Shown piece after piece: positions 4,766 through 56,928 of a DNA stretch of 64,000 bases (its first letter is position 1; each line of letters begins with the position of its first letter). Made by a program: the position numbers and the translations under genes. The DNA is taken from sequence record MT611523.1. The stretch is one strand, 5' to 3'. A model generated the notes under the pieces. The model did no database searches. It was not told where the DNA came from and worked only from the letters and a program-made list of their open reading frames with translations. Origin of the DNA: Escherichia phage DK-13.

Positions 4766-4822
4766 ATGAACCTCTGTTCAATTAGTTGACTCGATTATAT
4801 TAGCATAAAAATTTTAAAGCAA

Positions 4823-4830
4823 TATAAATA
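4823..4830 (+). promoter_or_regulatory. T4-type late promoter motif upstream of gene 34
   Basis: exact TATAAATA about 30 nt upstream of gp34 ATG. Confidence 0.6.
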
Positions 4831-15528: not shown

Positions 15529-15800
15529 AATCCGGAGGTATACATCATAAGATAACGGTGTATATCTTCGAATCCTTCGTTAAATTGTTCAATGATTTGT
15601 TCAATTTCATCTTCAGATAAACTTTTAAACAACTTGTTAAACGATACATTGTTTAACTCATTCCCATTCTCATTCCGTAATCCTAACTCATTCAAAAACG
15701 CGATAAACACATCACGCTTCATCGTAATATCTTCCCGGTCGGTTTTAATCAAAATTGAAGTTACAGTAACAATTTCAGAAACGATTTCAAATTTAGTCAT
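15525..15800 (-). CDS. asiA: anti-sigma70 protein AsiA
   Basis: 91 aa; ...EIVTVTSILIK..REDI...FIAFLNE.G...FNEGFE...RYL.MYT resembles T4 AsiA; converges on holin t as in T4. Confidence 0.88.
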   Translation of the reverse strand: MTKFEIVSEIVTVTSILIKTDREDITMKRDVFIAFLNELGLRNENGNELNNVSFNKLFKSLSEDEIEQIIEQFNEGFEDIHRYLMMYTSGF

Positions 15801-15858
15801 TTTAATTTACTCAAGTATTCAATAAGACATTCAATTATTCAGTAAGGATATTGTACTA

Positions 15859-16023
15859 TTATTCCTCTGGGTTGTACACATGATTTTTCATCTGTACAAC
15901 ATATTCCTGATACATCTGTTCAACTGGTTCCTGGAACTTAAAATCAGCTCCAAGGAATTCCTCAAAGCAAGACTGTTCGTGTGTACGCTGGCCAGTAATG
16001 GTGTTCTCTAAGTTATGACTCAT
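15859..16023 (-). CDS. small hypothetical ORF (54 aa)
   Basis: ATG ORF below the track size cut-off, found by manual translation (MSHNLENTITGQRTHEQ...); weak support. Confidence 0.3.
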   Translation of the reverse strand: MSHNLENTITGQRTHEQSCFEEFLGADFKFQEPVEQMYQEYVVQMKNHVYNPEE

Positions 16024-17215: not shown

Positions 17216-17824
17216 TCACTTTAAGATGTTAATAACATGTTGAATGTTTTCAGTTGACATAACATTGTCAATGTAGGTATTCAATCCACCCACTTTAACG
17301 CTAAATCCCACATCTGTAAACTGTTTTACTATCTTTTGTTCAGTATTATACGCATGTACGCGAATCTGACCATCACGCCGCACATCAATCTGTTTTAATG
17401 TCTTGATACGCTTGAACTTCACAATCAGATTGCTGCGGTCTTCTGAAATGCTCTTAAAGTCAATACCAATAGACAATAATTGCTCTTTGATATATTCTGC
17501 AGTCGCTTCCATTTCATCAGTAACACCGCGTTTTGTTCTTGTCTTCTTCACTTCCAGAAGGTCGGGATTATTTTCATTCGCCCAAAGTTCAGCTGCATCC
17601 AGAATAAGGTCAACACCCTTTTCTGTAATCATCAAACCATCACCAGAAGCTTCAACATAGTTGTTATTCAACAATGTCTGCACGCTATCAATTGACGTGT
17701 TCTGCTGGCCTAAAACAACCTCAGGACGCACGAAGTTGTTTTTGTATACAAACACCAGAGCATTAACATCAGTCTCATGTAGAGCGTTCTGGGAGCATTT
17801 AACGATATAATTTAACTTGTTCAC
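17216..17824 (-). CDS. motA: middle-promoter transcription activator MotA
   Basis: 202 aa; start codon GTG with AAGGGA SD; N-terminus M.K..YI.K.S and overall pattern resemble T4 MotA; synteny between asiA and 52. Confidence 0.8.
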   Translation of the reverse strand: MNKLNYIVKCSQNALHETDVNALVFVYKNNFVRPEVVLGQQNTSIDSVQTLLNNNYVEASGDGLMITEKGVDLILDAAELWANENNPDLLEVKKTRTKRGVTDEMEATAEYIKEQLLSIGIDFKSISEDRSNLIVKFKRIKTLKQIDVRRDGQIRVHAYNTEQKIVKQFTDVGFSVKVGGLNTYIDNVMSTENIQHVINILK

Positions 17825-17826
17825 AA

Positions 17827-18042
17827 TTATCCCTTAATAGATTTCATATAATTTGATGCATATGATTGTACCACAGTACGTTTCATATGGGAAGTAGAAA
17901 CAATCACATCAATCGCTTGTTTACGTTCTTCTTTAGAGTTTGCCAGTTTGAACATGTCAAAGTAGTAATAACAAGCTTCTTTATTAGATTTGAATTTAGC
18001 GTTAATGTATTCTTGACCTTCATTCTGTTGTGCAGTAAACAT
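17827..18042 (-). CDS. hypothetical small protein (71 aa)
   Basis: ORF-track start 18054 is TTG; ATG at 18042 has GGAGA SD. Confidence 0.45.
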   Translation of the reverse strand: MFTAQQNEGQEYINAKFKSNKEACYYYFDMFKLANSKEERKQAIDVIVSTSHMKRTVVQSYASNYMKSIKG

Positions 18043-39055: not shown

Positions 39056-39289
39056 TTAAACTACTGGGGTAGGCGTAAACATCGCCGCGTTCTTAGTTCG
39101 CCAATCAGCTGCACTAGACGCTACGGTGACATAAGCGGCCTTTTCGGAAGGAAAAGTCTGATAGTGTGCATTAGCAATACGGTGCTCGTTCGAATAGATT
39201 TCAAACGGAACAGATACTTCAACACCTTTAACTTCAACACCTTCACCAGCTGGATGCGTAAAGGTTTTGATATTAACGAAACCACCCAT
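39056..39289 (-). CDS. soc: small outer capsid protein Soc
   Basis: 77 aa; ...VNIKTF.....G...KG.E.SV.F..YS..H.I..AHYQTFPSEKAAY.TV resembles T4 Soc. Confidence 0.85.
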   Translation of the reverse strand: MGGFVNIKTFTHPAGEGVEVKGVEVSVPFEIYSNEHRIANAHYQTFPSEKAAYVTVASSAADWRTKNAAMFTPTPVV

Positions 39290-39332: not shown

Positions 39333-39566
39333 TTATTTTATCATAACCTTTTTAGTTAAAAGCTCGTCGGGATGCCTTCTGGCGTATGAAGGGCTTTCTT
39401 TTACTGGGGTATTTGAAATAACATCACTTAATTTATCAGCTCTAGCTTTTAATTCTACGTGTTCTTTTGAATCTTTAAAAGGATGACTAATTATTTGCAA
39501 ATTAAGACCATGTAATTCATATTTAAGCCCTTCCATAAATCTTGCTGGGCACCCGTAATTATTCAT
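39333..39566 (-). CDS. hypothetical protein (77 aa)
   Basis: ATG ORF abutting the 3' end of the HNH gene; could be a separate gene or a frameshifted C-terminal part. Confidence 0.35.
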   Translation of the reverse strand: MNNYGCPARFMEGLKYELHGLNLQIISHPFKDSKEHVELKARADKLSDVISNTPVKESPSYARRHPDELLTKKVMIK

Positions 39567-40392
39567 TTTCGAACCTCTTTACCATGTTTATATAATTTTC
39601 GTCTGGATAACCTAAACTAACTGCTAACTTTCTAAAATTCACATATTTAGGTTTGTTATTACTAAGCCATAAATCTCTAAGCTCAATTTCATAATTCCAT
39701 TTAAGCTGGTTTCCTCTAGCAGTTTTGCTCAAAGTTTTTCCTTTATCTTTTAGAGCTTTTTCCGAAGACTGTTTTAATTTTTGGAGATTTAAAACTTCCT
39801 CAACAGATAAATTATTTTCTTCTGCATAGCGCGCACAAAAATCTTTTACTGTAGCTATTAGACAGTTTTTGTGGGTACCTAAAACTTCCGGATTATTTTC
39901 TTCAACCAAAACTCCCCAGTATCTTCGATAGCGAGGCATATCCCGCGAAATCCAGTCATTATACCAGAAATCAAAATTAGAATACATAAAGGATTTTCTT
40001 TTACGGAGAATGTCTTGCTCTATCCACTCCCCGCGTTTATCGGCCCATAACTTAATAGTAAGGTCTTTCTCTAAATCAGAAAGCTTCTTAAACTGGGCAC
40101 TATTTGTTAGTGTCATTCTCTGGAATGCATTAAGCAAACCCAACACCCGAGTTGAGCACAAAAGATAATGAACATATATGTGTTGGTATATAGGAAGATA
40201 CACCCTATTCCAAGGAGAGATTTTAAAATCGCTGTATTCTGGAAATGCACACTTCGGAAGTATATGATGAGCTTCCGTTTTAGATTTGGTATGGACGTTT
40301 AGTTTATACTTATCTATAATTTTTAAGTAATCATCTAAAAGTTCCCATTGCGGGAACTTTTCTTTAAGAACGGATTTGAAATTAATATCCAT
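39559..40392 (-). CDS. HNH-family homing endonuclease-like protein
   Basis: track start 40407 is TTG; ATG at 40392 with AGGA SD; HNH motif EAHHILPKCAFPEYSDFKISPWNRVYLPIYQHIYVH; inserted between 56 and soc. Confidence 0.7.
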   Translation of the reverse strand: MDINFKSVLKEKFPQWELLDDYLKIIDKYKLNVHTKSKTEAHHILPKCAFPEYSDFKISPWNRVYLPIYQHIYVHYLLCSTRVLGLLNAFQRMTLTNSAQFKKLSDLEKDLTIKLWADKRGEWIEQDILRKRKSFMYSNFDFWYNDWISRDMPRYRRYWGVLVEENNPEVLGTHKNCLIATVKDFCARYAEENNLSVEEVLNLQKLKQSSEKALKDKGKTLSKTARGNQLKWNYEIELRDLWLSNNKPKYVNFRKLAVSLGYPDENYINMVKRFENE

Positions 40393-40897
40393 TGTCCTGA
40401 CGTTCAAAGTTGTGTTTATTTTTCAAATAATAAAGTTTAAACATTTCTTCGGCTGACATATTAAGACCAATAGCCATATTGAATACAAAGTGCATAATGT
40501 CAATTAATTCAAATTTAATTTCGAGTTGGTCTTCAGGAGACATTTCTGAAATAGGTTTAGCTTGTGCTTCCAGATAACGAGCTTTCCATTTTTTCCAGAC
40601 ACCTGAAGCATCTTTTTCACCTTTAGACATTTCACCGAGAGAAGTCAAAAGTTCACGGAATTCATCATCAATACAGTCTTTCTGTTCGCGCATCCAGGCA
40701 ACTACATCGCCTGCAGTGGCCAGTTTATCCGGATGGTAGCAATAATCACGGTCATTAGCCAGACGAACCTGCAATGATTTCTGCATATCAAGCATAACTT
40801 GCAGTGGGTCAGTGCCTTCAAAAATTGCATTATCATAAGCGCCTTGAGCTTTATCAACACCAGCAATCAGTTGAGAACACTCGTTAAAATGAGCCAT
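40382..40897 (-). CDS. 56: dCTP pyrophosphatase gp56
   Basis: start moved to ATG 40897 (MAHFNEC...); ...DPLQVMLDMQ..LQ.RLAN.R.YCYHPDKL.TAGDVV.WMREQKDCIDDEFRELLTSLGEMS.GEK.AS.VWKKWKARY.EAQ resembles T4 gp56. Confidence 0.9.
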   Translation of the reverse strand: MAHFNECSQLIAGVDKAQGAYDNAIFEGTDPLQVMLDMQKSLQVRLANDRDYCYHPDKLATAGDVVAWMREQKDCIDDEFRELLTSLGEMSKGEKDASGVWKKWKARYLEAQAKPISEMSPEDQLEIKFELIDIMHFVFNMAIGLNMSAEEMFKLYYLKNKHNFERQDNGY

Positions 40898-40981
40898 TAT
40901 ATTTTTCCTTATCAATTCATGTTGTTTGTATGTTAATTATATCGTATTGGTTTAAAGCATAAATACACGGAAGGAGGATAT

Positions 40982-41179
40982 ATGCTCAAACTATCTAGTC
41001 TAATTCAAGCCATCAAAGGCAGTCGTAAGCGAACGATTCTGGTCCTTTCGATACTCTGTTTAGTTCTACTCTGGAACTTCGTTGTTGCCCCTATTGCATT
41101 GGCACATGGTGTTATATTGCCAGTCGTCGCGCTCGAATCAGTTGTAGATGTTTCACTGGCATTAATCGGCCTTATATAG
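40982..41179 (+). CDS. possible small membrane protein (65 aa) on the opposite strand
   Basis: ATG with strong AAGGAGG SD 4 nt upstream; CATAAATA (late-promoter-like) at about 40958-40965; two hydrophobic segments; all neighbours are on minus strand. Confidence 0.35.
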   Translation: MLKLSSLIQAIKGSRKRTILVLSILCLVLLWNFVVAPIALAHGVILPVVALESVVDVSLALIGLI

Positions 41180-41358
41180 GTGGAACTATGTGAACATTAT
41201 TCTATCAGATTTGGAAATTAACCAGTAAGAAAAGCCCATGATGTTTCTCTGTGGAACTTACTGGTTGTGCCTATCGCTGCAACACAAGGGGTGCACTTAC
41301 CTCAGGTCACAACGGAACATATCCATTCCATCATCGGTTACTTTACCGGAATCCCTTC

Positions 41359-42108
41359 CTAAACTTTTGCGTACTTCCAAAAATGGCCGTTTGACCTATA
41401 CATTCGGCCTGTCTTTTTATTTCTTTTACAAGCTGTGTATATATTTTGAGTATTGCCCGCCAATTGTAATAATTCCTTTGCCTCAGCTCCCGAATTATAC
41501 TTTTCAAGTATATTACCAAATTCATCGCATCTACAAACCGGTGTTCCAGTTGCCTTTCGGCATGCTTCTCGGCGCAACTTTTTCGTTTCTTCGGTTTGCG
41601 GATTTTCTTTAAATCGTCTCATTTGTGCATCGCGATTCTTTTGCCGTTGTTCATCAGTAATTGGATTATTTTGATAATACAATTTTAATGAGTTGGCTAT
41701 TTTGCTTTTGGTTTTATCAGACGCAGGGTGGTCGTTATGTCGCTTGTGTAAAGCAATTAACATTTTGTCTTTAAACTCGGATTGACTCCATAAGTTTGAC
41801 ATATGTTCACTAACGGCTTTACTATGTTCTTTTCGCATCCATTCATATTTTGCGCTATCAAATTTGTCACCACACATCCGGTGTATAGCAAACATTAATT
41901 TAGAAAGTCGATAAATTTTAAAAAGTAACAAATGCGCAATAAAATGTTCTCTTGCTGATAACAATACCAAATTATCTTCGGTGTCAGGCCCACCCAAACA
42001 CCTTGGTAGTATATGATGGGACTCCGTATAAAATGGGATATTCTTTTTGTTTAGGCCCCTTGCGAGGCCTTTGTCTATTAATTTATTATATAATTTTAGA
42101 TAATTCAT
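41359..42108 (-). CDS. HNH-family homing endonuclease-like protein
   Basis: 249 aa; HNH motif ESHHILPRCLGGPDTEDNLVLLSAREHFIAH; N-terminus paralogous to plus-strand HNH ORF at 56212; inserted between 61 and 56. Confidence 0.75.
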   Translation of the reverse strand: MNYLKLYNKLIDKGLARGLNKKNIPFYTESHHILPRCLGGPDTEDNLVLLSAREHFIAHLLLFKIYRLSKLMFAIHRMCGDKFDSAKYEWMRKEHSKAVSEHMSNLWSQSEFKDKMLIALHKRHNDHPASDKTKSKIANSLKLYYQNNPITDEQRQKNRDAQMRRFKENPQTEETKKLRREACRKATGTPVCRCDEFGNILEKYNSGAEAKELLQLAGNTQNIYTACKRNKKTGRMYRSNGHFWKYAKV

Positions 42109-43133
42109 ATTTTTGCATATTTGGATAATCGAAGTTTTGCCATTAAACCTTGTGCAATATTATCATTCATATAGGCTTCAATTTGCTCAGGCGTTGCTCC
42201 TTCCGATTTAATCATTTCATTTATATCTTTCGTATGCCACGGTGCATTGTCCCAGAACATAACAGCTTCTCCTGCATCGACTAATTTCTTCATACGTTTA
42301 ATTGTATCAGGATGTCTTGCTTCTGAATCCATCACCCATACTCTGGTTTCTGGATAAGGAACAGCTTCCAATGACAATGTTCCACCAGTTATCGCAATGC
42401 TGTTAGGGATAAACAAACTATCAATCGGACCTTCCATTACCCATACACGTTTACGCTCATCAATCTTGTCTACGCCATAGACTTTGGAAGCTTCTGGGTG
42501 AGCTTTGATTGTGATATATTTTTGTGGTGCATCTTTGCGAAGAGCTCGTCCTTGGAAAGATTCGATTTCTTTTTTGCCGTTGAAGATAGGAATAACCAAG
42601 CGTGGTTCATTCGTTTCATTCTTATACGTCCCAGGATTAACGGAGTTAACTAATGCGGGCCATTGGTTTGTAAACCATAACCGGTTCCAAACATTGCTCG
42701 GAATACACCGACTTTTTACATACTTAACTATCGGATGCGCTTCTGGTAAAGTATCGAGTCTTTCACAAAAAGCAAGCTGCTCAATAACCGGAGTTTTTTC
42801 TGGTTCTTTCGGAGTTTCAATGACTTCATTGCGTTGTCGCCCGAAGGCGTTCTCCTTATACTTCTCAACCATATATTCCCGGTGTAAATCCGGCTCAAAC
42901 TCTTTTATGTATTTGCTTATATGCGTGGAGTAGTCACAGTTAAAACATTTCACGTAAACCGCACCATCAGCCGGATTAGTATACGCCCAGAATCGAGCCT
43001 TGTGTGAATCTTTCTGGGAGTCCCCACAAACCTTGCAACGACAGTTTGCTTTAAATGTGCTCCCGGTGACTTCTCTATAACGTGGTTGATACGATAAAGC
43101 TCTGACTGCAAATTCTTTATCAATATATGACAT
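42105..43133 (-). CDS. 61: DNA primase gp61
   Basis: 342 aa; zinc-ribbon C.VCGDS...C.NC then TOPRIM-like region (...EGPIDSLF..N.IAITGG...); C-terminal IAQGLMAK.RLSKYAKI resembles T4 gp61. Confidence 0.9.
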   Translation of the reverse strand: MSYIDKEFAVRALSYQPRYREVTGSTFKANCRCKVCGDSQKDSHKARFWAYTNPADGAVYVKCFNCDYSTHISKYIKEFEPDLHREYMVEKYKENAFGRQRNEVIETPKEPEKTPVIEQLAFCERLDTLPEAHPIVKYVKSRCIPSNVWNRLWFTNQWPALVNSVNPGTYKNETNEPRLVIPIFNGKKEIESFQGRALRKDAPQKYITIKAHPEASKVYGVDKIDERKRVWVMEGPIDSLFIPNSIAITGGTLSLEAVPYPETRVWVMDSEARHPDTIKRMKKLVDAGEAVMFWDNAPWHTKDINEMIKSEGATPEQIEAYMNDNIAQGLMAKLRLSKYAKI

Positions 43134-43333: not shown

Positions 43334-43352
43334 AACACCCCCTTTCCGCTAT

Positions 43353-43544
43353 TTATACAACGAAGATAGCTTTATCACCATTTGCATCAGTCACTTCATA
43401 AGTGTCTTCATGATACAATGGAATAATCCAGGTAACACCATCATCAGCGATAACATGGATTGCTTCTTGGTCTTGCGACACGATTTCATATTCTTCAAAA
43501 ATCTGGAAGACGGAAATCTTAGAGCCCGTACACATTGCACTCAT
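43353..43544 (-). CDS. hypothetical protein (63 aa)
   Basis: ATG ORF. Confidence 0.4.
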   Translation of the reverse strand: MSAMCTGSKISVFQIFEEYEIVSQDQEAIHVIADDGVTWIIPLYHEDTYEVTDANGDKAIFVV

Positions 43545-55979: not shown

Positions 55980-56198
55980 TTAATCAAAGTATTCATATGC
56001 AAACCAGGCATTGTGTCTGTTCGCGATTATTTTAACATATTCTTCACCGAAAGCGTTTTGTAAGTCACGTTCAGTAACAAGGTGTTCATCTTTCGAAAAG
56101 GTATTAACTAACACATATCGTTTAATTTCAGGGACAGCCAGTAAATGCTGCCCGGTTAAAAAATTGCTCATAAATAATATTATCCGTTGCAGTATCAA
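55980..56198 (-). CDS. hypothetical protein (72 aa or shorter)
   Basis: track start is TTG; internal ATG at 56171; position as T4 45.2. Confidence 0.4.
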   Translation of the reverse strand: MILQRIILFMSNFLTGQHLLAVPEIKRYVLVNTFSKDEHLVTERDLQNAFGEEYVKIIANRHNAWFAYEYFD

Positions 56199-56211: not shown

Positions 56212-56928
56212 ATGAATTATAACATCATTTACCAAAAGCTTATTAGCAGAGCATTGAATCGCAAATTAACCACATACTCTGAAAGTCATCACATTATACC
56301 CCGTTGCATGGGTGGGGCAGACGACGCTTCAAATCTTGTTGATTTAACTCCCGAGGAACATTTCGTTTGTCATCAACTGTTGGTCAAAATGCATCCAAAT
56401 AATGCTTCTTTGGTCTATGCCGCGCGCATGATGACAGTTTCCTCACCAAACGCCGACAGAAGCAAAAACAAATTATTTGGATGGCTTCGTCGTAAAAACT
56501 TGGAAGCTCAACAAAATAAAATTTTCTCCGATGAAACCAGAAAGAAAATGTCAGAATCCGCCAAATTAAAACCGAGAGTTGAATGTCCACACTGTGGAAA
56601 AACCGGTCTCGTTGGCAATATGAATCGTTGGCATTTTGATAACTGTTCCAAAGGTCCAAACAAGGTTGTTCATACTATTCCAGAAAAACAAAAGCAAAAA
56701 ATTTCAGTAGGATTAAAACAAGCTAAACATGAAATTTTAACTTGTGAATTTTGTGGTCTTGAAGGTAAAAAGTGTGTTATATCCACTCACCAACAATTCT
56801 GCAAATCCAATCCAAACCGGAAGAAAAAGGTGGACCCCAAAATTCAGTGTCCACATTGTAATGTAGTCGGTACGCCAGCCAATATGAAACGTTGGCATTT
56901 TGATAACTGCAAAATGAAGCCTCAATAA
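56212..56928 (+). CDS. HNH-family homing endonuclease-like protein with three C-terminal zinc-finger-like repeats
   Basis: track ORF 56011..56928; start moved to ATG 56212 (MNYNIIYQKL...); HNH motif ESHHIIPRCMGGADDASNLVDLTPEEHFVCH; repeats CPHCGKTGLVGNMNRWHFDNC, CEFCGLEGKKC, CPHCNVVGTPANMKRWHFDNC; only plus-strand gene in this early block. Confidence 0.75.
   Translation: MNYNIIYQKLISRALNRKLTTYSESHHIIPRCMGGADDASNLVDLTPEEHFVCHQLLVKMHPNNASLVYAARMMTVSSPNADRSKNKLFGWLRRKNLEAQQNKIFSDETRKKMSESAKLKPRVECPHCGKTGLVGNMNRWHFDNCSKGPNKVVHTIPEKQKQKISVGLKQAKHEILTCEFCGLEGKKCVISTHQQFCKSNPNRKKKVDPKIQCPHCNVVGTPANMKRWHFDNCKMKPQ

Follow-up and report, generated by a model that had tools for sequence, protein, structure and literature searches.

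A conserved opposite-strand gene of the dam.1 family in Escherichia phage DK-13, preceded by a late-promoter-like box and predicted to encode a small membrane protein

Introduction

The closest relative with a gene name of its own is dam.1 of phage T4, an open reading frame (ORF) of 66 aa on the plus strand (17738-17938) between dam and gene 61, which was given its name in the T4T record HM137666.1. We analyzed a stretch of 64,000 nucleotides of Escherichia phage DK-13 (sequence record MT611523.1), referred to as the window, and followed up an original prediction that a 65-aa ORF on its plus strand might encode a late-expressed small membrane protein. The source phage is a T4-type phage of the genus Gaprivervirus, and the closest complete genome over the window in the phage collection searched is that of vB_EcoM_RZ (92.7%). 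The gene itself is not new. It is catalogued as a hypothetical protein and as dam.1 in T4T; an annotated entry of this kind from Escherichia phage DK-13 agrees with the small protein at 100% of positions, and hypothetical proteins are also annotated in vB_EcoM_RZ, in VR7 (VR7ORF033w, "similar to RB32 ORF030w") and in most relatives. In the T4 records NC_000866.4 and AF158101.6 dam.1 is unannotated. The conserved gene is likewise unannotated in the records of IME08 and SP18 (15701-15895), and most newer records annotate it.

With regard to layout, the nearest comparison is with MgrB (47 aa) and SafA (65 aa), very small bitopic N-in/C-out inner-membrane regulators of enterobacteria. Such a layout is that of proteins acting by binding a larger membrane protein. 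The predicted Dam.1 protein shares with them its size, a single transmembrane (TM) helix, an N-terminus that is basic and cytoplasmic, a short tail in the periplasm and a concentration of conserved residues at the periplasmic side, whereas it shows no sequence or profile similarity to any characterised family, is phage-encoded and is probably late. With regard to expression, the reference is the gp55-dependent T4 late promoter with TATAAATA at -13 to -6. Of the 50 T4 late promoters listed in a review (Geiduschek and Kassavetis, PMC2988020), 32 have the perfect box, in nine T is replaced by A at -13, and the majority of the rest show a single deviation. Position -13 is the most variable one, typical late promoters are AT-rich just after the box, and late transcripts can have either polarity (PMC2988020). 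A study using differential RNA sequencing in T4 reports 150 phage start sites, of which 22 are antisense (bioRxiv 10.1101/2024.04.04.588121).

The DK-13 protein is about 50% identical to the T4 copy and 83-100% identical to Gaprivervirus copies. Length, orientation against the neighbours, the place between gene 61 and gene 56 or dam, the Shine-Dalgarno (SD) sequence and a late-type box are common to the DK-13 and T4 genes. They differ in that the stop codons of the small gene and gene 61 share 4 bp in T4 and in most genera, whereas a decayed paralogue and an HNH gene intervene in DK-13, and in that the T4 box GATAAATA is followed by AT-rich sequence and the DK-13 box CATAAATA by GC-richer sequence. 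On the basis of the comparisons described below, we assign a probability of roughly 0.65 to the account as a whole, in which a late gp55-dependent mRNA would encode an N-in/C-out micro-membrane protein that acts on an envelope partner via a periplasm-proximal motif.

Conservation of the small gene

The ORF and the two elements directly upstream of it are the following:

40982-41179, plus strand: coding sequence of 65 aa with an ATG start, a member of the Dam.1 / VR7ORF033w / PHROG 2024 family and a predicted small membrane protein
40971-40977, plus strand: SD sequence AAGGAGG, 4 nt 5' of the ATG of the dam.1-family ORF
40958-40965, plus strand: CATAAATA, a T4 late-promoter-like -10 box with a 7/8 match to TATAAATA, deviating at -13; predicted transcription start at about 40971

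The 65 codons translate to MLKLSSLIQAIKGSRKRTILVLSILCLVLLWNFVVAPIALAHGVILPVVALESVVDVSLALIGLI. The ORF and its SD sequence were found as originally predicted, and so was the late-type motif, which lies 5 nt before the SD sequence and 16 nt before the ATG. The statement that the surrounding genes are on the minus strand also holds: from about 30 kb to 56 kb of the window all credible genes except the small ORF have this orientation, and no minus-strand gene overlaps it.

The protein matched PHROG 2024 (category 'unknown function') over its full length (E 2.4e-26, residues 1-65 versus profile positions 1-65 of 65), and 35 of 35 diverse relatives matched this PHROG and no other. A tblastn search with the window protein returned 700 phage records at 46-97% identity, which split into about 33 records above 80% (Gaprivervirus) and 667 at 46-54% (Tequatrovirus including T2, RB3 and RB59). 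A distant family member used as query added 138 further records from other genera. In total, homologues were found in about 840 T-even-type phage genomes of at least nine genera, always antiparallel to their neighbours. This compares with 977 records that contain a relative of gp61 (at least 60% identity to the window primase), so that roughly 85% have a detectable small ORF. A profile search of 1.84 billion representatives gave 11 matches, all of them small phage proteins or fragments, with distant relatives of 60-69 aa, apart from a repetitive 449-aa protein that we judged spurious. Scanning IMG/VR for the family yielded eight loci only.

The immediate gene neighbourhood in the window consists of three minus-strand genes:

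40382-40897, minus strand: gene 56 (dCTP pyrophosphatase, dCTPase), the divergent neighbour of the small ORF
41359-42108, minus strand: HNH homing endonuclease (PHROG 655, E 6.6e-45), located between the small gene and gene 61
42105-43133, minus strand: gene 61 (DNA primase), which in other genera converges with the small gene, the two stop codons overlapping by 4 bp

An antiparallel position converging on gene 61 is found in Tequatro-, Gapriver-, Kanagawa-, Gelderland-, Moon-, Marfa-, Mosuguk- and Dhakavirus. In the loci that we read in Kanagawavirus, Gelderlandvirus, Moonvirus, Marfavirus, Mosugukvirus and Dhakavirus, the stop codons of the small ORF and gene 61 usually overlap by 4 bp. The window gene has kept the family interval (gene 61 to gene 56 or dam) and the orientation, while a pseudogene and the HNH gene have replaced the direct stop overlap. 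About 930 bp now separate the small gene from gene 61, and it is still intact. In the Krischvirus, Slopekvirus, Lazarusvirus and Bragavirus loci examined, the small gene is absent and gene 61 abuts the next same-strand gene, which is gene 56 or another ORF. Therefore, the small gene behaves as a discrete gene.

Moreover, the ratio of non-synonymous to synonymous substitution rates (dN/dS) was 0.07-0.63 for within-clade pairs in which both values were non-zero, and second codon positions were the least changed. Between clades dS exceeds 1, yet the reading frame, the length and the invariant residues persist. Frame, length (58-74 aa), motif and SD sequence are kept across genera whose proteins are only about 25-35% identical. 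An Rfam search of the region gave no match, and its RNA folding was no better than that of shuffled sequence (z = +0.53). As the protein is conserved in at least nine genera with a dN/dS below 1, the core idea of the original prediction, a real gene on the opposite strand, is supported. We consider it very likely from these comparisons that the plus-strand ORF at 40982-41179 is a true protein-coding gene, namely the orthologue of T4 dam.1 (VR7ORF033w, RB32ORF030w, PHROG 2024), which occurs throughout the Tevenvirinae.

Given this conservation, the dN/dS values, the lack of an overlapping minus-strand gene and the lack of an RNA element, a chance ORF or a purely RNA-level element is excluded for practical purposes. 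Many ORFs of 30-70 aa arise by chance on the non-coding strand here and the T4 reference record has no annotation, which would suit a chance ORF in an AT-rich intergenic region that has been propagated by annotation pipelines with nothing expressed. This explanation is hardly conceivable in view of the maintained frame, length, motif and SD sequence, the dN/dS below 1 and the absence of the gene where gene 61 abuts its same-strand neighbour; the comparative data have effectively refuted it already. Alternatively, selection could act on a late plus-strand RNA that is antisense to the gene 61 and HNH mRNA and to early or middle read-through, with the ORF being incidental. Convergence on gene 61 with overlapping stops in most genera and the lack of a predicted terminator after the ORF speak for such an RNA, and T4 late transcripts have either polarity, with both strands being transcribed at several sites (PMC2988020). 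We regard it as extremely improbable, because it is the amino-acid sequence that is conserved (23-50% identity, with W, P, A and P unchanged and the frame kept while the DNA diverged with dS above 1 between clades), the strong SD sequence is conserved, no RNA structure is, and the gene is intact in DK-13 despite its distance from gene 61. An antisense side-effect may exist alongside the coding function.

The late-promoter-like box

In every lineage examined, a late-type box is found 13-22 nt upstream of the ATG, closely followed by a strong SD sequence, and the upstream contexts are otherwise unalignable. The boxes of the individual lineages are:

TATAAATA, the perfect box: Entb_45, Marfa and IME08 (three genera)
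GATAAATA: T4 (17,710-17,717), T2 and PM2
AATAAATA: fPS-2 type
CATAAATA: all Gaprivervirus
ATTAAATA: STML-198 and Merlin

Thus, in the lineages that lack the perfect box it reads N-ATAAATA or ATTAAATA. The SD sequence before the ATG is (A)GGAGG in most homologous loci, with GGAGG in Entb_45 and AGGAG in PM2. In the window VATAAATA was observed four times compared with 16.8 ± 4.4 expected occurrences. Since (V)ATAAATA is depleted, the CATAAATA box is not background, and the under-representation is consistent with selection against stray late promoters. Besides, six of the seven perfect TATAAATA sites in the window precede an SD sequence and an ATG, and at 8-9 of 11 NATAAATA sites an SD sequence and a start codon follow within 16-39 nt.

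Compared with T4 late promoters, the box agrees at seven of eight positions and in its geometry before SD sequence and ATG, and perfect boxes occur at this locus in three genera. It differs in having C at -13, where the common variant in T4 is A, and in the segment downstream of it, which is not AT-rich (CACGGAAGGAGG after the window box versus TTAATTTAAAGG in the T4 and T2 homologues). As a late-promoter box stands before the SD sequence in every lineage, late expression of the small gene, which had been proposed originally, appears probable from the conserved motifs.

The only other copy of CATAAATA in the window, itself one of these 8-9 sites, is located at 56169-56176 on the plus strand, 35 nt before a plus-strand gene for an HNH endonuclease (about 56212-56928) that lies among minus-strand genes. 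Because this copy also precedes a plus-strand gene, CATAAATA may be a working late-promoter variant in DK-13. A perfect TATAAATA is found at 43350-43357 on the minus strand, the early/middle strand, 16 nt before the homologue of gene 61.1; this very short distance from promoter to ATG equals that of the small gene.

Predicted topology and possible function

The protein is predicted to be composed of an N-terminal amphipathic helix, the basic patch KGSRKR, a TM helix at about residues 18-41, the loop HGVILPVVA and a C-terminal amphipathic helix at residues 51-64. An AlphaFold2 model built with a 35-sequence alignment placed helices at residues 2-11, 15-41 and 51-64 with a mean predicted local distance difference test (pLDDT) score of 74.7. 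The original prediction had described a membrane protein with two hydrophobic segments. Two hydrophobic stretches were indeed seen in a Kyte-Doolittle plot, and the positive patch followed by a TM helix agrees with a membrane protein, but across the family only the first stretch qualifies as a TM segment. On a Hessa-type scale this first segment had a dG of -2.4 kcal/mol here and of -2.4 to +4 across the family, whereas the C-terminal segment had +5 here and +5 to +13 across the family and is an amphipathic, acidic tail. The C-terminal 24 residues of the DK-13 protein are hydrophobic with two acidic and no basic residues; in the family this segment has conserved acidic residues and in many members also basic residues or His. 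Five Lys/Arg residues before the TM helix together with the net acidic tail make a single-pass N-in/C-out topology the best prediction, and its insertion into the inner membrane in this orientation is quite probable.

Residues W31, P37, A39 and P47 are invariant, G43 is near-invariant, and N32 as well as an acidic residue at position 52 vary little or not at all, giving the motif WN..P.A...G..LP....E/D at the predicted periplasmic side. In the family as a whole the core reads W-N/D, P-x-A, G-x-x-[LI]-P and an acidic residue. The window protein carries the full core, comprising the basic patch, the TM helix, W31, N32, P37, A39, G43, P47 and E52. The conserved columns lie in the outer half of the TM helix, in the periplasmic loop and at the start of the C-terminal helix. 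As the invariant residues are located in the outer helix half and the periplasmic loop, this is the expected place of a partner-binding surface.

The following mechanism would be in line with these features. To judge from the conserved motifs, RNA polymerase with gp55, gp33 and gp45 would start transcription late, about 6 nt past the one-mismatch box CATAAATA, and produce an mRNA with a leader of about 11 nt that starts at the strong SD sequence. The 65-aa product would then enter the inner membrane as a single-pass N-in/C-out protein. Conservation suggests W31-N32...P37-x-A39...G43...P47...E/D52 as its functional surface. As a speculative last step, and in analogy to other very small bitopic membrane proteins, its most likely action late in infection would be to bind and modulate, at the periplasmic face, a larger envelope protein of the phage or the host, such as one with a part in lysis timing or envelope integrity.

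Several points weigh against this account. The box has C at -13, which is neither T nor the common variant A, and the segment after it, CACGGAAGG, is not AT-rich, which may make for a weak promoter. A leader of about 11 nt, as predicted here, is unusually short. In some members the hydrophobicity of the first TM segment is marginal, and in the Dhaka/Marfa type an Asp lies within it. The T4 reference omits the ORF. In addition, a literature search on ORF030w, ORF033w, dam.1, unannotated T4 small ORFs, T4 ribosome profiling and late antisense promoters returned nothing about the gene.

Two other roles for the protein have to be considered beside that of an uncleaved single-pass protein. The N-terminal 41 residues could be a Sec signal peptide, and cleavage by signal peptidase I after A-L-A41 would free a hydrophobic, acidic peptide of about 24 aa, HGVILPVVALESVVDVSLALIGLI, at the periplasmic face, which would be the active product in place of the membrane anchor. 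In this case KGSRKR would serve as the positive n-region, and A39-L-A41 before H42 provides the small residues needed at -3 and -1. The invariant P37 and A39 would fall at -5 and -3, residue -1 is small in most members, and the long helix of the AlphaFold2 model ends at residue 41. The putative site reads ALA|HG in DK-13, AIA|HG in T4, ALA|YG in Gelderland/Moon types and AA(S/T)|Q in Dhaka/Marfa types. The hydrophobic core, however, comprises about 19 residues instead of the about 7-15 expected of a signal peptide, a length usually seen in signal anchors that stay uncleaved. Position -1 is F, M or V, or position -3 is P, in some members, and no single register fits the whole family. We therefore consider cleavage unlikely. 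A holin, pinholin or antiholin that accumulates late in the inner membrane and forms or regulates lethal holes would also be small, predicted to be membrane-embedded and probably late, and depositors have labelled family members 'holin family protein' (EAWsc9) and 'Holin' (vB_EcoM_OE5505). In this respect Dam.1 resembles class II holins and pinholins such as S68 of phage 21 and the T4 antiholin RI, which are small phage membrane proteins made around the late period. T4-type phages already have the holin T, the antiholins RI and RIII and spanins. Holins typically have a charged hydrophilic C-terminal tail, whereas the C terminus of the window protein is hydrophobic and acidic, and it has a single convincing TM helix. 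No member was significant against any Pfam holin family, the best score among 35 relatives being GTA_holin_3TM with E 0.1; the window protein had no NCBIfam match, and the category of PHROG 2024 is 'unknown function'. The gene is flanked by gene 56, HNH endonucleases and gene 61, which belong to replication and nucleotide metabolism, and neither an endolysin nor a spanin is linked to it. A holin-type function is thus highly unlikely, and neither profile matches nor C-terminal composition nor gene neighbourhood support the label of the two records. In broader searches of Pfam, NCBIfam, PADLOC and PDB sequences with the protein and the 35-member alignment nothing significant was found, and Foldseek against BFVD returned same-family members only, one of which is labelled 'Holin' by its depositor.

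Any specific role that might be proposed for the Dam.1 protein is doubtful at best. One improbable but far-reaching idea is that the Dam.1 family constitutes an unrecognised late envelope factor of T-even phages including T4, either as a small bitopic protein that tunes holin, antiholin or spanin action or protects the long-lived lysis-inhibited cell, or as a periplasmic peptide of about 24 aa processed by signal peptidase. If either were true, a lysis and envelope system that is among the best studied would gain a new component. Since T4 is a model for lysis, lysis inhibition and superinfection exclusion, an unstudied and probably late membrane protein with conservation throughout the subfamily is a cheap and testable candidate for a missing accessory function. 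Its tiny gene is under purifying selection and has undergone duplication in one genus, but the T4 reference annotation lacks it.

Overlap with the predicted middle promoter of gene 56

The original prediction held that the region must also contain the minus-strand promoter of gene 56 and that sense and antisense transcription could interfere there. A promoter of this kind was identified:

40936-40959, minus strand: predicted MotA-dependent middle promoter of gene 56, with the MotA box TGCTTTA (40959 to 40953), an 11-nt spacer and the -10 element TATAAT (40941 to 40936)

It lies about 39 nt upstream of the gene 56 ATG, is a strong, textbook-like fit to the MotA pattern (TGCTT(t/c)A, a spacer of 11-13 nt and -10 TAnnnT) and is conserved in Gaprivervirus relatives. 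Eight matches to the MotA-type pattern were found in the window compared with 1.55 expected, and six of the eight are on the minus strand. The MotA box and the late box CATAAATA share 2 bp. The C at position -13 of the late box is the complement of the G in TGCTT, which offers a reason for the deviation from the late consensus. Related divergent arrangements exist elsewhere: a "predicted middle promoter" is annotated in fPS-2, and in X01416, an old T4 record, a potential promoter named P(E)17.40 has a -35 element that overlaps GATAAATA.

The second part of the claim has to be corrected for this site. The promoters are back-to-back and divergent, with predicted starts at about 40929 (minus strand) and about 40971 (plus strand), some 42 bp apart. 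Since they diverge and would be used at different times by different polymerase forms (MotA/AsiA-sigma70 versus gp55/gp33/gp45), the transcripts would not collide, and interference at the level of the promoters would be binding competition or a temporal hand-over. Overlap of sense and antisense RNA would arise elsewhere. In a scan for intrinsic terminators none was found between the small ORF and gene 61, nor between the HNH gene or gene 61 and gene 56, on either strand. Such overlap is likely to come from minus-strand read-through from gene 61 and the HNH gene across the ORF, and from late plus-strand RNA that runs into the HNH gene and gene 61.

According to this model, one segment of about 45 bp would direct transcription of the minus strand in the middle period and of the plus strand in the late period. 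The 2-bp overlap of the late -10 box and the MotA box would show compactly how T-even phages switch strand usage over time, and the shared middle/late promoter segment would, if true, be a compact strand-switching element. A second back-to-back pair is present at 4797-4830, where a minus-strand MotA-type middle promoter (4797-4821) is directly adjacent to a plus-strand TATAAATA (4823-4830) that is followed by an ORF of the latter strand. The start of the T4 dam.1 coding sequence includes, within its first codons, an inverted repeat (ATGGCA...TGCCAT) with a T-run after it on the minus strand, and in fPS-2 a terminator for the gene 61 transcript is annotated there. This hairpin is not conserved in the window, where the peptide sequence is.

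The decayed paralogue and other neighbouring genes

Between the small gene and the HNH gene we found the remains of a second copy:

41188-41362, plus strand: pseudogene of a second, tandem paralogue of the Dhakavirus/Marfavirus type, in which ATG is followed at once by TGA and 26 nt are deleted in the TM region

Its C-terminal half is still recognisable (WNLLVVPIAATQGVHLPQVTTEHIHSIIGYFTGIPS versus WNLLVVPIAATQGVVLPQVTIEHILSIVSFFTGVPS in Marfa), and its stop codon shares 4 bp with that of the HNH gene, an arrangement like that of the intact gene and gene 61 elsewhere. The segment 41251-41362 had been a candidate for a partial duplicate of the ORF; this was rejected, as the alignment comprises a whole decayed paralogue of a different subfamily. 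The second paralogue is intact in VR25 and VR26 (66 aa), with Gly replacing the conserved acidic residue. Elsewhere, it has a late frameshift in VR7, the ATG-TGA lesion is shared by VR20 and RZ, and more sequence is deleted in EAWsc9. Decay has occurred independently and has hit one copy only where the other is intact, which argues for a required function and for interchangeable subtypes.

At its 3' end the HNH gene encodes KYAKV*, which aligns with the terminus of VR7 gene 61, and gene 61 of the window has acquired a fresh end, KYAKI* (42105-42125). This alignment indicates that the endonuclease gene entered gene 61 at its 3' end. RZ and P8 carry the insert, whereas VR7 and EAWsc9 lack it.

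On the other side of the small gene, a mob-like HNH endonuclease ORF (PHROG 655) at 39559-40407 on the minus strand overlaps the 3' end of gene 56; T4 and VR7 carry segF at this place. A 77-aa ORF at 39333-39566 on the minus strand lies between this second HNH ORF and soc. It was considered as soc itself and rejected, since the real soc is located at 39056-39289, downstream of a TATAAATA box.

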